Shown here in pieces: positions 18,039 to 22,208 of a stretch of 64,000 bases of DNA. The stretch is from Yuukianura sp. NJ FZ-2021 (taxonomy: Eukaryota). Made by a program: the position numbers and the translations under genes. The stretch is from positions 4,588,001-4,652,000 of the forward strand of contig CM102289.1 of assembly GCA_046563655.1 (NCBI GenBank), given 5' to 3'. Position 1 is the first letter of the stretch. Each line of letters opens with the position of its first letter. A model generated the notes under the pieces. It had not been told where the DNA came from. It did no database searches and was given only the letters and a program-made list of their open reading frames with translations.

Positions 18039-20574
18039 CTAGAAAGAAACGGTCGCTTTCTGCTGGCCGGTGTGATATTCCGGGTCTACCCCCACGGGTT
18101 CCTTCGTTTTGAGTGACGCTAATAACTTGTCGTTAGTCTTGCATTCCATTTCTAGTTCCTTCAGACACTTTTCGTAGGACACTACGGGTTCCTTCGTTTT
18201 GAGTGACGCTAATAACTTGTCGTTAGTCTTGCATTCCATTTCTAGTTCCTTCAGACACTTTTCGTAGGACACTCTTTGGCCTAGTAGTCTCTGCAGCTCG
18301 TGTTGAAGTTTGTCAACTAAAAATTGTTATCAAAATATGATCTTACAAAATTGATCCACACATCACAATAATTGTAAAGAAATAACCTGAAAGTCGCTCG
18401 TTCTGGTGCCTTTTGTCTACTTTATTACAAGCATCATTCAAGCCTTCGTGAAGAGACGACAACTGACTCAAGAAGTCGACGCGTCCAGAACCCGATTGAG
18501 AGACTCTATCAATCAAGAAATGGGGGTTAGTTTTTTCTTAAGCGAAAAAGTTGCATTGCGTTTAACTTTGCCAATGTTAAGCTTTTATTTAGTGGACAAA
18601 CATACTGGTGATATGAATCGATGATTGAATTTAGTAGTGAGAGCTCCTTTTCCAAGTATCGCTTTGTATCTTCCAAAGAATTGTACAGACTAAAGAATTG
18701 TTTGGTTTGGCGATGTGTTGCGGATACTAAAGTATCATTTCAGATTTTACACAATTATTTCAGGCAATAGAAATGGCTGGAGTATGGGAGAGGGTGTAGG
18801 ATGTAAACCCCCTAACCCAACCATTGTAACCTCGAGACGCAATCCGCATTGCGAACTTTAAAAAACCGAACCCCCTAAATAGGGGGTTACAGTCTACACC
18901 CACTGCCTTACCCCTACCATAGAAATTAATATATTCCAAAGTAGTCTCGAACTATAGTTCATTTTTTTATTCTGTGCAGTTGGTAAAATCAATTGCAGTC
19001 GCTCTTATGGAGATTTTCATTTTTTTGAAAATACGACCACCGTGCTGTATACATGGCGTTTTTCGCAATATTGAAAAATACAATGTTAATCCTCCATAAG
19101 GCGATTGGAACAGCTCAACTGCACAGAATAAAACAATGAACTATAGTCAAACCATCCTTGTCTTTAATAGCTCCTTGATAGATTTCCGTTTCTGGGGCAA
19201 TAAAGCTTTTTCCCATTTCAATGAACTTTTTTGGTCAAAATTTTCGATAGAATTTTTTTTTTCACTTTTATCATGTTTCAAACATTTTTGGAACGTTTGG
19301 AGCCAAAAAAAATTTGATCTCAAGATTTCCTTTTTCCCATTTTTTTGTGAATCTGGACTCGAATATTTTCAAGGTAGAGAAACTGAAGTGGCCACCCTTG
19401 ACAACTTCAAAAATGGCCCTCATGAAAGTTGTTCAGAATCATAAGGGGAAGGGGAGTATTTTTTGTGCTATAAACTATGAAGCTACGACCATTCCATGAG
19501 GTCAGAGGTCACCATAAACATTTCCCCAATTTTTCTTCGTGTTATGCTCACCTTGGGGTCAAAAAAATTTTTTTGCTCCAAACGTTCCAAAAACATTTAA
19601 AACATAATAAAAAGTGAAAAAAAAATTGTTTCGAAAATTTTGACAAAAAAACGGAAGAAAGCTTCACTGCCCCAGGAACGGAATTCTAACCTAGCTCCCT
19701 TACCTTGATTGTATAACTCCGAAAATCGTAATCTGTACTCGCGTAACTCTATCCGATTTGGCACTGTGATATTGATAATTGCAAATGATCACAATTTACC
19801 GTCCACAGCATCGCGGTGTATAGATTAAAAAAAGAAACATGAATTTAGTTGAGAATTTTATAGTTTCGTAACCTATTCCACAAGGAGAACGGAAGGTCAG
19901 CAGTCAGGGTAAATCCTTGTCATAGTTTGTCATTTGAAAACTCAAAGCAACATACCTTGATCAATTTGTCGCTTCAGTAAAGCCAACCTTCGGTTCACGT
20001 TACCCAATTCAGTTCTACCCGCTTCTAGCCTTGTCTCGGCGCGCTGGAGCTGGGCTGTAACTTCGCTATTACTAGATGGTACTTCAGTATCTCCTAGAAG
20101 TTGAAATGTTTGAAAAGAAAACTATGTAATATGTGTCTCGCAATCAAGGACAAGAAAGAACTGTAAGTCAAACAAATAATACGAATCCGATCAATTATTA
20201 CCCCCTGGAAATACCAAAATCCGGAAGCGTTCCAGGTCCTGATTGCACATTTCTTTGAATTGCTTCTCGTCAAATTTTAAACGGTCATACGTCGCCAAAA
20301 GCTCTTCGATTTCCTCAGAAGTTCGACCCCCTTTCGATGCTGCCAAGCTTTGTTGAACTTCTTCCGCCTTCCGATCTAAGTCATCTAAGCTTGACTGCAA
20401 CCTCTCCATTTCGATTTTTAACACTTCGATTTTTGCTCTCTTCTCCGATTCTTCATAGTTGCATTTCACCAACTCGTGCGTCAGTAACTCGTTTTGTTCA
20501 ATCAACGATGAAATGAGGTTCATGTCGGTCGACTTCGAGCCGTCTATAGATGTTTCTCCATTCTGCGAGTTCAT
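18039..20574 (-). CDS. CCDC93: CCDC93 (CCC/Commander subunit), C-terminal coiled-coil half only; possibly a truncated paralog or young pseudogene
   Basis: Six phase-compatible exons with no internal stops: [84 protein letters not shown], ...[13 protein letters not shown]. First in-frame ATG at 20574. No N-terminal domain exons upstream. Confidence 0.85.
18094..18273. repeat. Perfect 90-bp tandem duplication in the last CCDC93 exon
   Basis: 18094-18183 equals 18184-18273; encodes [30 protein letters not shown] twice. Confidence 0.95.
18783..18922. mobile_element. Small hairpin MITE in CCDC93 intron
   Basis: GGGTGTAGGATGTAAACCCCCTA vs TAGGGGGTTACAGTCTACACCC inverted. Confidence 0.65.
18950..19148. 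mobile_element. MITE in CCDC93 intron (related degenerate copy ~38325-38435)
   Basis: ACTATAGTTCATTTTTTTATTCTGTGCAGTTG / CAACTGCACAGAATAAAACAATGAACTATAGT. Confidence 0.8.
19180..19686. mobile_element. ~500-bp foldback element in CCDC93 intron
   Basis: Long arms: TTCCGTTTCTGGGGCAATAAAGCTTT...TTTTGGAACGTTTGGAGC vs GCTCCAAACGTTCCAAAA...AAAGCTTCACTGCCCAGGAACGGAA. Confidence 0.8.
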
Positions 20575-20760
20575 TTTCCCGGTTGAAACAAGTTCCACTA
20601 TTATGGGGAAATCTAGATTTTCAAAATTCAAAAGAACAAAAAAAAACTTTCCGTCATTTCCGGAGAAAAATTCTTTCAGATTCGGGTTCAGAATACTCAA
20701 ATTAGTCTAGAACAAAATGGCGTCCAAATCGGTGCTGCGCCGCGATAGCACAATTTTTCC

Positions 20761-21268
20761 ACGAGATGTTTACGGTAAATTACCAATTAGCTTCTTCTTC
20801 ATCCTGCATTTTAACTAACAATAAGTACTACATTCAACGCAGAATGTATGTTCGAAACAACGACGAGGCAACGTGGCAACAATCGTTCTCGTGATTCGTT
20901 CTGTTTTCTTTCCTGTAACCTCTCCTCTCTACCTGTAAATATTACATACGGAAGCTTTAATTCTTTGCGGTGTTATTCTTATTACCCAGGTTGACGTTTT
21001 GAAGTTGAAAGGAATCCCAATAATTTGAGTTTTTGACTTACCTGTTTTTCGACTTTAGAAAACAAAGAAAAAACAACCTGGTAAGGTTATTGAAAAATGA
21101 GAATATGAGAATGGATAGACCATGGAAGGCCTATACTCTTCAATAAAATGTCAACAGCTGAGTCAACGAAACAGAGTTTAAGTTCTTACTTTCTTTGATT
21201 TGTTTCACTGCAGTGCTTACTGCTTTTATCACTTGACTGTAGTTCCAGTTGTTAGTTTTTAGCAAAGC
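20761..21268 (-). promoter_or_regulatory. Inverted copy of the TBC1D23 promoter/5'UTR/start exon, oriented toward CCDC93
   Basis: Reverse complement aligns along its length with 21686-22208; retains UTR donor (AAAAACAG|GTAAGT), acceptor (ATTTACAG|) and ATG CAG GAT GAA GAA GAA GCT AAT TG|GTAA at 20809. Confidence 0.9.
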
Positions 21269-21288
21269 CGAGCTTTACTAAACTCTAT

Positions 21289-21415
21289 CGGGTGTTCGAA
21301 AAGTTAGTTCCATCGTTTTTCTCCCGGTGTAACTTCTCCATCTCATCTCCCGTTGCATTTTTCGAGCTTATGAGTTTTGTCCAGAGAAAGATGGAACTAA
21401 CTCATCATCACCAGC
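21289..21415. mobile_element. MITE fragment in the spacer of the inverted duplication; reverse-complement relative of 38690-38830
   Basis: GGGTGTTCGAAAAGTTAGTTCCATC...CTCCATCTCATCTCC...GAGCTTATGAGTTTTG matches the opposite strand of 38690-38830. Confidence 0.7.
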
Positions 21416-21685
21416 ACCAAACCAGCAAAACACCAGCAAAAACATTTCAAAAAATCTGCAACGAAAAATTTGTACTACCACTACGTCGACTTTGTTTTTT
21501 ACAGCAACTGAAAATTCTAGGCAGAAAAAAAAAGTAGTTGCAGAAAAAACTGGACGAAAATAAAATTGAGTTGTTGCAATTTTGTATTGTTGTAAGAAAA
21601 AGTCTATGAAAATAATTTTGAGACGGAGTAAAATTGAGACACGGCAAAAATCCCGACGGAGAAAATTTGAAATCCCGATGTCAAA

Positions 21686-22208
21686 GCTTTGCTAAAAACT
21701 TACAACTGGAACTATTAGTAGAGTCAAGTGATAAAAGCAGTAAGCACTCCAGTGAAACAAATCAAAGAAAGTAAGAACTTAAACACTGTTTCGTTGACTC
21801 AGCTGTTGACATTTTATTGAAGAGGAGCAAGCCTTCCCTGGTCTATCCATTCTCATATTCTCATTTTCAATAACCTTACCAGTTTGTTTTTTCTTTCTTT
21901 TCTAAAGTCAAAAAACAGGTAAAGTCAAAAACTCAAATTATTGGGATTTCTTTCAACTTCAAAACGTCAACCTGGGTGATAAGAATATCACCGCAAAGAA
22001 TTAAAGCTTCCGTATGTAATATTTCCAGGTGGAGAGGAGTGGGTACAGGAAGCAAAGAAAACAACGAATCACGAGAACGATTGTTGCCACGTTGCCTCGA
22101 CCTTGTTTCGAACGTATACATTCTGCGTTCAACAAGCTTAGTACTTATTGTTAGTTAAAATGGATGATGAAGAAGATGCTAACTGGTAATTTATCGTAAA
22201 CGTCTCGT
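21686..22208 (+). promoter_or_regulatory. TBC1D23 promoter, non-coding exon, UTR intron (~21919-22028) and start exon
   Basis: GTTGACTCAGCTGTTGACA (E-box-like); donor AAAACAG|GTAAAG; acceptor TTTCCAG|; ATG at 22160 splices in phase (TG|G) to the next coding exon. Confidence 0.8.

Follow-up and report, generated by a model that had tools for sequence, protein, structure and literature searches.

A fairly young inverted copy of the TBC1D23 5′ end faces an apparently long-established, coiled-coil-only CCDC93 gene

A classical bidirectional promoter consists of one shared element. New chimeric genes are known to arise by capture of a neighbor's promoter and 5′ exon, as in jingwei-type cases, and the hairpin RNA (hpRNA) loci of Drosophila fit a model of origin by inverted duplication of the target. 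Fold-back inverted duplication is a known mechanism for large human duplications, as described in PMC3907307. TBC1D23 bridges golgins and WASH/FAM21 (PMC7274447) and CCDC93 is a subunit of Commander (PMC10187114); according to the latter paper, coiled coils CC1-CC4 of human CCDC93 pair with CCDC22 and recruit DENND10 (CCDC93 310-488), and the CCDC93 linker threads the COMMD ring and is termed necessary for stable COMMD assembly.

In the 64-kb stretch of DNA analyzed here (the window), TBC1D23 and CCDC93 resemble a bidirectional-promoter pair in being divergent, head-to-head, close together and both involved in endosomal recycling. Unlike a classical bidirectional promoter, however, the symmetry of this locus would stem from a one-directional promoter present twice, in mirror-image orientation. 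As in fold-back inverted duplications, the copy is inverted beside the original, and the original center may have been only 3 nt; in contrast to the large human events, the copy measures 0.5 kb, is apparently fixed in an arthropod germ line, has no associated terminal deletion, covers a promoter and start exon and is now split by an apparent 403-nt insertion. Like jingwei-type chimeras, the locus places a duplicate of one gene's promoter and start exon before the coding region of another, but CCDC93 was an autonomous gene beforehand, the good acceptors leave the copied start codon out of frame and the transcript is putative. Part of a protein-coding gene has been duplicated in inverted orientation and a long hairpin is predicted, as for hairpin-RNA and miRNA genes derived from inverted target duplicates, except that the original arm here is still the working 5′ end of TBC1D23. 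Finally, compared with human CCDC93 of Commander (CCC; PMC10187114), the protein encoded in the window keeps the conserved CCDC93_CC region, the part matching CC1-CC4, but has neither the N-terminal CH domain nor the linker of the COMMD ring.

Table 1. Positions of the features of the TBC1D23/CCDC93 region within the window.
Feature	Position	Strand	Basis or remark
Short CCDC93, coiled-coil part only	18039..20574	-	gene model, Pfam CCDC93_CC
CCDC93 exons	20574-20202, 20093-19956, 19763-19704, 18726-18606, 18505-18387, 18316-18039	-	gene model
Perfect 2 x 90-nt tandem duplication in last CCDC93 exon	18094..18273	-	repeat search (D1, 100%)
Low-copy repeat adjoining outer left-arm end, between left arm and CCDC93 start codon	20623..20760		contig depth
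Left arm, inverted copy facing CCDC93	20761..21268	-	blastn, alignment, repeat search
Copied donor GT	20783-20782	-	left arm
Copied start exon	20809-20784	-	MQDEEEANW
Copied AG; copied GT	20934-20933; 21041-21040	-	left arm
Spacer, 417 nt	21269..21685		between arms
Apparent insertion, 403 nt	21283-21685		flanked by 11-bp repeat (candidate target-site duplication)
MITE-like unit	21295-21402		inverted ends; 76% copy at 38702-38820
Right arm, original TBC1D23 5′ end	21686..22208	+	blastn, alignment, start-peptide match to orthologues
Upstream part of right arm, 474 nt before ATG, presumed promoter and 5′ leader		+	sequence
Candidate leader intron in right arm	GT 21919-21920 .. AG 22027-22028	+	GT..AG pair alone
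TBC1D23 start exon	22160-22185	+	MDDEEDANW, phase 2
Start-exon donor GT	22186-22187	+	then 21 further intron bases inside right arm
TBC1D23, complete	22160..25736	+	RabGAP-TBC, rhodanese, TBC1D23_C domains (Pfam)

The left arm (508 nt) is an inverted copy of the right arm (523 nt; Table 1), with 90.5% identity over 526 columns by blastn (707 bits, E 0.0), in keeping with the figure of about 90% estimated by eye in the initial annotation; a repeat search and a MAFFT alignment agree. The MAFFT alignment of the two arms contains 474 matches, 33 mismatches and 26 gap columns (93.5% identity without gaps, JC distance 0.068), and in the repeat search the pair is made up of seven collinear inverted segments (I1, I2, I4-I7, I9) of 91-97% identity. 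Similarity ends at both edges, the outer flanks being 32.7% alike and the inner flanks 59.6% with many gaps; the extra similarity that MAFFT extended past the inner ends was, at that level, left out of the repeat. The copy lies directly beside its source, 417 nt away. A blastn search with the left arm as query found no third copy in the window, and both arms are at about single-copy depth in contigs from four short-read runs of two samples (X1-X3 from one, X4 from an independent one). The inverted duplication is real, local and evolutionarily fairly young, with 6.5% of aligned sites differing.

Both arms encode the start peptides originally reported (Table 1), read from an ATG at 22160-22162 and from a minus-strand ATG at 20809-20807, and the claim that splice sites are intact in each arm agrees with the GT/AG dinucleotides present at three splice-like sites in both; the division of the arms into a putative core promoter, UTR exon and UTR intron is read from GT..AG pairs alone. 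Identity between the arms is 95.2% in the part that precedes the putative leader intron, and the most diverged piece is the coding part of the start exon (4 of 26 bases). At ∼6.5% divergence, the nine bases of the splice-like sites and start codon would all be kept by chance about half the time, so that their retention is no evidence of selection. With its start-exon part the most diverged and its site retention near the chance level, the left arm has no sign of selection.

We conclude that the right arm is the original, because TBC1D23 orthologues share its acidic start peptide ending in W. Thirteen of the 30 relatives listed start with M, at most ten mostly acidic residues and then W, and the closest of these 30 (P0156, 701 aa, 81% identical in the query exon) begins MEEEDTNW and aligns over residues 9-700 to positions 22287-25736 (tblastn). 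The window TBC1D23 follows the orthologue pattern, a short acidic N-terminus ending in W and then ..LE.AL, and the exon after the start exon begins at 22286, in phase with it; the start peptides and this phase support the earlier choice of the TBC1D23 arm as the original. Pfam domains occur in the order PF00566 (E 7e-12, 22753-23169), PF00581 (E 1.9e-5, 24143-24361) and PF19430 (E 1.1e-11, 25398-25736), and Pfam likewise bears out the identification of both TBC1D23 and CCDC93.

The spacer suggests how the arms came to be separated. It opens with CGA, followed by GCTTTACTAAA (21272-21282), which matches the first 11 bases of the right arm (21686-21696) at 10 of 11 positions. The remaining 403 nt appear to have been inserted into a palindrome that had a 3-nt center, giving an 11-bp target-site duplication, which is read from this single 10/11 match. 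Most likely, we infer, a fold-back palindrome with a 3-nt center arose directly upstream of the original TBC1D23 start and was later split by the 403-nt insertion, which is rich in transposon-like sequence. What was copied is the opening 0.5 kb of TBC1D23, comprising the nine-codon start exon, ∼22 nt of the intron that follows it and, ahead of it, the presumed 5′ leader and promoter-proximal DNA. The locus would represent a clean, datable case of a fold-back duplication that copied a promoter and start exon towards a neighboring gene.

On the other side of the repeat, CCDC93 has a coding sequence of 1089 nt (362 aa) that starts at its own ATG at 20574 and contains five introns, all GT-AG, and its reading frame is free of frameshifts and internal stops; two intron-less relatives, P0001 and L001, confirm how the exons are joined. 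The CCDC93_CC profile (PF09762) is matched at positions 137-389 on five exon ORFs, with exon D alone scoring 58.6 bits, and the last exon aligns with the C-termini of relatives. The tandem duplication in this exon adds 30 residues; relatives have a single copy, and X1 and X2 contigs skip 90 nt at 18094-18273. None of the 568 window ORFs of ≥45 aa matches the CCDC93_N / NN-CH domain (PF21673), the best N-terminal match in the window has an E value of 0.79 (tblastn with four full-length orthologues), and a homologous-protein search of exon A against longer proteins found none of 420 candidates at E≤0.001. The COMMD-ring linker is also missing: aligned to a 634-aa orthologue, the short forms do not start until about residue 326-335, past the linker. 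A 22-residue match to a CH-domain motif on the minus strand at 8402-8467 (E 1.1-4.3) was rejected as chance, since it is antisense to ORFs of another gene and has neither a neighboring motif nor a Pfam hit. The sole Rfam match, a hairpin at 18951-19147, is sub-threshold (34.9 bits against 245 needed).

A coiled-coil-only CCDC93 is also encoded by two intron-less, transcript-like contigs of relatives (L001 and L002) and by an annotated protein of the springtail Allacma fusca (P0003, 324 aa). Of the 429 profile positions, these cover 140-428 (L001 ORF, 328 aa), 130-428 (L002 ORF, 312 aa) and 133-428 (P0003), compared with a start at 137 in the window, and the first 130-140 positions are absent from all four; whole ORFs of the relatives score 203-222 bits. 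The window ATG aligns with the start of the relatives' proteins, and an in-frame TAA lies upstream of the ATG in both L001 (38-40) and L002 (136-138). Synonymous differences between the window gene and L001 or L002 are saturated (pS 0.95 and 0.87; dN 0.29 and 0.41). Because synonymous sites are saturated relative to relatives with the same short gene while the arms are only 6.5% apart, the short CCDC93 is far older than the duplication. Judged by these alignments, CCDC93 in this lineage is anciently short and encodes only the coiled coils of the C-terminal part, beginning near the start of CC1.

L001-L004 are metagenome contigs, and it is conceivable that the short transcripts among them stem from internal promoters of longer genes; an internal-start CCDC93 isoform of a 578-aa protein is annotated in the bug Rhynocoris (P0075). 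Several CCDC93 models of ∼327 aa from other animals were set aside as partial or mixed. In a search among shorter proteins for an N-terminal-only CCDC93 (query P0044 residues 25-200), no named springtail appeared among the best 120 of 461 matches, a result that does not bear on loss versus fission. The conserved, evidently selected coiled-coil-only CCDC93 may matter more to cell biologists than the duplication does: it offers a natural separation-of-function variant of a Commander subunit and prompts one to ask how the COMMD ring is connected to Retriever in this lineage, if it is connected at all.

The ATGs of CCDC93 (20574, minus strand) and TBC1D23 (22160, plus strand) diverge and are 1,586 nt apart; before the copy and the insertion they would have been ∼660 nt apart, and the TBC1D23 core promoter is therefore very probably within the copied 474 nt. 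The left arm does face CCDC93, as first described, and ends about 186-210 nt from its ATG. We favor, with a probability of roughly one half, the account in which a young fold-back copy stands before an anciently short CCDC93 and the left arm would drive that gene. At about even odds, the arm would contain a functional second copy of the TBC1D23 core promoter, directed towards CCDC93, and some or all CCDC93 transcripts would begin in it. If active, it would offer a simple route from a one-directional to a symmetric, co-regulating promoter.

Under this account, the CCDC93 leader would include the copied ATG, which would open a nine-codon upstream ORF; splicing to the best-looking acceptors (exon from 20706 or 20612) would end this ORF with TGA, whereas an unspliced leader would end it with TAA. 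In good context, such an ORF would dampen CCDC93 translation, a point against this account. Translation would use the gene's own ATG at 20574, and no fusion protein is expected. When the copied start exon is joined to acceptors with exons from 20706, 20612 or 20562, a TGA falls at the joint, and joining to an exon from 20597 gives a stop after 41 codons. The sole acceptor upstream of the CCDC93 ATG that keeps the frame through exon A is a weak AG at 20697-20696 (exon from 20695). We regard as conceivable, but on the whole unlikely, a fuller version in which the short CCDC93 takes its working promoter and leader from the left arm, mirror-image promoter copies drive two endosomal-recycling genes, which would be co-regulated through a fold-back duplication, and the CCDC93 of this lineage (apparently springtails) is without the CH domain and COMMD-ring linker, through loss or fission, parts that the human Commander structure treats as essential. 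In a bolder sub-case of this version, in which the weak acceptor is used, the protein would begin with TBC1D23-derived MQDEEEAN followed by 40 repeat-derived residues.

The copy may instead be a neutral relic, with a left arm that is inert or gives only unstable transcripts and with CCDC93 driven from the 186 nt before its ATG, possibly from the adjoining low-copy repeat, or from the spacer. We take this to be a real possibility, although well short of an even bet. The copy carries no signature of constraint, its divergence being roughly even apart from the start exon, and relatives have short CCDC93 leaders, with lower bounds of 115 nt (L001) and 180 nt (L002), which makes a transcription start near the ATG plausible. 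A genomic contig of a relative (L004) has no alignable similarity to TBC1D23, or to the upstream region of the window, in the 480 nt upstream of its CCDC93. On the other hand, just ∼48 nt of unique sequence separate the ATG from the low-copy repeat, a copy of a housekeeping-type promoter region with 95% identity is expected to retain some activity, and an intact and conserved CCDC93 must be expressed from within ∼1.1 kb. The low-copy repeat has ∼3.5-6.7 times single-copy depth at 20686 and 20713 in X1 contigs, and loose contig ends with unlike continuations occur at 20760/20761 (X1, X2 and X4) and at 20623 and 20638 (X2); blastn found no second copy of it in the window.

The initial annotation had seen the copy as standing in place of the missing 5′ half of CCDC93 and proposed that a single rearrangement both removed that half and supplied a promoter and start exon from TBC1D23, giving rise to a new chimeric transcription unit. 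The window has no CCDC93 N-terminal domain, the copy points the right way and the weak acceptor described above would join the copied start exon in frame to the CCDC93 open frame. Nevertheless, this scenario is largely refuted on timing and we consider it very improbable. Relatives with saturated synonymous sites have an equally short CCDC93 with the same start, preceded in L001 and L002 by in-frame stops, so the short gene predates the 6.5%-diverged copy and has its own ATG; moreover, the better acceptors give an immediate TGA. By this comparison, the duplication neither decapitated CCDC93 nor was needed to rescue it.

Similarly remote is the idea that a transcript across both arms forms a ∼500-bp hairpin that is diced to small RNAs against the leaders of TBC1D23 (or CCDC93). 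Positions 20761-22208, taken as one RNA, are predicted to fold into a near-continuous hairpin (-862.7 kcal/mol), and it is an established model that hairpin-RNA and miRNA genes can arise when a target gene is duplicated in inverted orientation (PMC3237417). Promoters within the arms would nevertheless fire outwards and give no transcript across both, and no Rfam family reaches threshold in the arms.

An assembly artefact, whether a fold-back chimeric read or an alternative haplotype placed inverted, is scarcely credible even though the sample of X1-X3 may be the assembly's own source and no contig among those listed bridges the outer left junction (20760/20761), for the arms are not identical but 6.5% diverged, the depth of each is full and not halved, and the junctions to the common spacer are bridged, also in the independent sample. 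The left-arm/spacer junction is bridged in all four runs, including X4 (21181-21604), and the spacer/right-arm junction in at least one of the four among the contigs listed. In X2, a left-arm-specific contig (20871-21165) has a depth of 37.1 and contains no other letters, compared with depths of 38.4 and 37.4 for the flanks and 28.6 and 23.1 for the right arm. Because arm-specific contigs are at full depth and the junctions to the spacer are bridged, we conclude that the repeat is neither an assembly artefact nor a collapsed haplotype. At the outer left junction the structure may differ or be polymorphic. An X4 contig starting at 21051 runs leftwards into unlike sequence; X4 has nearly no cover at 20755-21188, which was not counted as evidence. 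Bins at 21189-21622 have two to four times the flank depth in all four runs.

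The 5′ end of TBC1D23 is present twice, in opposite orientations, on a stretch of eukaryotic character (G+C ∼37%, with short GT-AG introns). A repeat search of positions 18000-25000 found seven collinear inverted segments (91-97% identity) that jointly tile the left arm against the right arm. Across the 526 columns of the blastn alignment (707 bits, E 0.0) the two are 90.5% identical; the MAFFT alignment has 474 matching, 33 mismatching and 26 gapped columns, for an identity of 93.5% with gaps excluded and a JC distance of 0.068. Because similarity stops sharply (the outer flanks are only 32.7% alike and the inner flanks 59.6%, with numerous gaps), the coordinates assigned by the initial annotation are exact. 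With the left arm as query, blastn found no third copy in the 64 kb.

Features of the TBC1D23-CCDC93 interval, with contigs spanning the left arm/spacer boundary and the matches of a related genomic contig
Feature	Position	Strand	Remark
Left arm	20761-21268	−	inverted copy, facing CCDC93
Spacer	21269-21685		417 nt
Right arm	21686-22208	+	5′ end of TBC1D23
CCDC93 exons (model)	20574-20202, 20093-19956, 19763-19704, 18726-18606, 18505-18387, 18316-18039	−	
TBC1D23 ATG	22160-22162	+	
TBC1D23 start exon	to 22185	+	MDDEEDANW; donor GT 22186-22187
TBC1D23 next exon	from 22286	+	joins in phase
Left-arm start exon copy	ATG 20809-20807, donor GT 20783-20782	−	MQDEEEANW
MITE-like unit	21295-21402		inverted ends; 76% copy at 38702-38820
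Low-copy repeat	20623/20638-20760		adjoins outer end of left arm; depth ∼3.5-6.7× single copy
Left arm/spacer contig, run X1	21181-21635		
Left arm/spacer contig, run X2	21181-21471		
Left arm/spacer contig, run X3	21181-21460		
Left arm/spacer contig, run X4	21181-21604		
Counterparts of contig L004	10246-12602, 18099-20454, 45977-48661		

The initial annotation had allowed that the arms might be a misassembly or a high-copy transposable element. Five public DNA runs contain the stretch, and four were examined as contigs; X1-X3 are from one sample, possibly the one used for the assembly, whereas X4 is from another study under another organism label. In X2, left-arm positions 20871-21165 have a depth of 37.1 with no other letters, compared with 38.4 and 37.4 in the flanks and 28.6 and 23.1 in the right arm, and arm-specific contigs are present at approximately single-copy depth. 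In all four runs, contigs span the boundary between left arm and spacer, and an X2 contig (21442-21779) joins the spacer to the right arm; among the contigs listed, none bridges the outer left junction (20760/20761). Given the arm-specific single-copy contigs and the spacer crossings, we conclude that the arms are two distinct, single-copy, physically linked sequences, which rules out a collapsed haplotype, a fold-back read chimera and a high-copy element.

Unlike the arms, the surrounding DNA is repeated elsewhere in the genome, as judged by contig depth: the spacer lies at 2-4× single copy, and the low-copy repeat outside the left arm has loose ends with differing continuations in X1, X2 and X4. 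This repeat extends precisely up to the arm's outer boundary, where it may indicate either the duplication's second breakpoint or an insertion of later date. Within the right arm, position 21988 is T in the window and A in every covering contig (X1, X2, X4); the matching left-arm base is also A. A second right-arm haplotype in X2 (contig 21795-22092) carries six differences, all within 21862-22010, and four of these variants recur as a minority in X1, which suggests that this promoter region is heterozygous at ∼2%.

TBC1D23 is complete in the window, with RabGAP-TBC, rhodanese and TBC1D23_C domains by Pfam, and residues 9-700 of a 701-residue relative (P0156) align to 22287-25736. The N-terminus of this relative is MEEEDTNW, and of the 30 TBC1D23 relatives returned, 13 open with M and carry no more than 10 mostly acidic residues before a W. 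Because this start is shared, the start exon of the right arm is the ancestral one and that of the left arm the derived copy, the direction first proposed. The left arm terminates in ...AGCAAAGC at 21268 and is followed by CGA and then GCTTTACTAAA (21272-21282), a 10/11 match to the first 11 bases of the right arm (21686-21696). The simplest reading of this one junction is that a fold-back duplication, a known kind of structure, arose directly upstream of its source as a palindrome with a 3-nt centre, and that a 403-nt insertion (21283-21685) with an 11-bp target-site duplication would have followed. The inserted DNA is rich in repeats, with raised depth. Without the copy and the insertion, the start codons would lie ∼660 nt apart, as a compact head-to-head pair.

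The CCDC93 model comprises six exons (1089 nt, 362 aa) in which every intron is GT-AG, with no stops or frameshifts. Against Pfam CCDC93_CC, the matches of its exon ORFs begin no earlier than profile position 137. None of the 568 window ORFs (stop-to-stop, ≥45 aa; searched as 98 + 150 + 150 + 150 + 20) matched CCDC93_N (PF21673), tblastn with four full-length orthologues against the window gave a best E of 0.79 for their first 300 residues, and the next 40 kb is occupied by other genes. Only the C-terminal part of CCDC93 is indeed encoded at this locus.

When the most conserved CCDC93 exon was run with HMMER against 1.84 billion representatives, 189 hits were returned, the closest in that exon being P0001 (98%), P0003 (90%; 324 residues, from the springtail Allacma fusca) and P0004 (90%). 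P0001 is colinear with the spliced exons, which confirms the exon joins of the model. A scan of metagenome contigs yielded four CCDC93 loci, two of which (L001, 1347 nt; L002, 1271 nt) lack introns at all five window positions and so are most simply cDNA-derived. Their ORFs (328 aa from an ATG at 116 in L001; 312 aa from an ATG at 181 in L002) are preceded by an in-frame TAA (38-40 and 136-138, respectively). All four proteins with an informative N-terminus start at CCDC93_CC positions 130-140 (L001, 140-428; L002, 130-428; P0003, 133-428; window, from 137), and in a joint alignment the window Met falls opposite the first Met of L002 and the second of L001. Synonymous sites are saturated (pS 0.95 against L001 and 0.87 against L002), dN values are 0.29 and 0.41, and the core barely varies, which means that the short protein has diverged for a long time under purifying selection. 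Because only 6.5% of sites differ between the arms, the short architecture is far older than the duplication, which therefore cannot have removed or replaced a 5′ half of CCDC93. Of the promoter capture by a decapitated CCDC93 that the initial annotation proposed, the duplication, its source arm and the gene names (borne out by the Pfam domains of both proteins) hold, and the decapitation does not. The short transcripts of the relatives could instead be internal-promoter isoforms, of which one is annotated in a bug; in the window there is neither room for nor trace of upstream CH-domain exons.

The TBC1D23 core promoter very probably lies within the copied 474 nt upstream of the ATG. The arms are 95.2% identical in the part preceding the putative leader intron and 96.3% identical in that intron itself, and the left arm faces CCDC93, ending ∼210 nt from its ATG. 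Since the part that very probably holds the promoter is so well kept, near and facing CCDC93, we rate it about as likely as not that transcription begins in the left arm and extends into CCDC93; this possible mirror-promoter arrangement merits follow-up. The copied ATG opens a nine-codon frame that ends at TAA if unspliced and at a TGA at the joint if spliced to the best acceptors (exons from 20706, 20612 and 20562), and an acceptor with an exon from 20597 gives a 41-codon out-of-frame peptide overlapping the main ATG. Among acceptors upstream of the CCDC93 ATG, in-frame joining is available only through a weak AG at 20697-20696 (exon from 20695), by way of 44 codons that by chance are open ahead of that ATG. 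Transcripts from the left arm would therefore be expected to encode the usual short CCDC93, preceded by a small upstream ORF, and no fusion protein. Most of the 44 codons come from the low-copy repeat.

It is nearly as likely that the left arm is inert. The ATG and three GT/AG pairs are conserved in it, roughly a coin-flip at such divergence; the copied coding bases are its most diverged part (4 of 26 differ), and the substitution pattern between the arms gives no sign of selection on it. That a transcript through both arms might form a hairpin and enter small-RNA pathways has no support beyond the predicted fold (−862.7 kcal/mol for both arms as one RNA).

By alignment with full-length orthologues, the short forms start at about residue 326-335 of 634. 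In human CCDC93, according to Healy et al. (2023, PMC10187114), the N-terminal CH domain sits on the COMMD ring, the linker is entwined through the ring and required for stable COMMD assembly, CC1-CC2 (residues 310-488) bind DENND10 together with CCDC22, and CC3-CC4 together with CCDC22 make up a second V-shaped coiled coil; we read CC3-CC4 as a link to Retriever. Compared with the human protein, the short form retains CC1-CC4 and is without the ring-binding half, which is either lost or encoded elsewhere. A CCDC93 reduced, as it appears, to coiled coils across the lineage also deserves follow-up. Its nearest named relative is that of A. fusca, and a derived core signature, REYRLRF..THRQTKQ, occurs in 4 of the 150 hits listed, all four short or partial.

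The last CCDC93 exon holds a perfect 2 × 90-nt tandem duplication (18094-18273) adding 30 residues. The unit is single in P0001, P0003, L001 and L002, and X1 and X2 contigs omit exactly 90 nt there; the duplication could be very recent or heterozygous, collapsed in the contig graph, or an assembly error. Intron 3 (977 nt) contains two hairpin-like inverted repeats, I3 (84%) and I8 (97%), at 19227-19651 and 18951-19147. The former looks like a high-copy MITE, because depth across 19236-19669 exceeds 40× single copy in X1; the latter matches Rfam MIR2646 below threshold (34.9 bits; 245 needed). In L004 (1-7038), a genomic contig of a relative, the short CCDC93 is followed by a pyridine-nucleotide oxidoreductase gene, the counterpart of the window's 46-48.6 kb gene, and then by a MYST acetyltransferase gene. 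Gene order around CCDC93 is therefore rearranged between relatives. Ahead of the first CCDC93 exon of L004 stand an acceptor-like ttccag and an in-frame stop, and the start codon of that gene may therefore lie in an upstream mini-exon.
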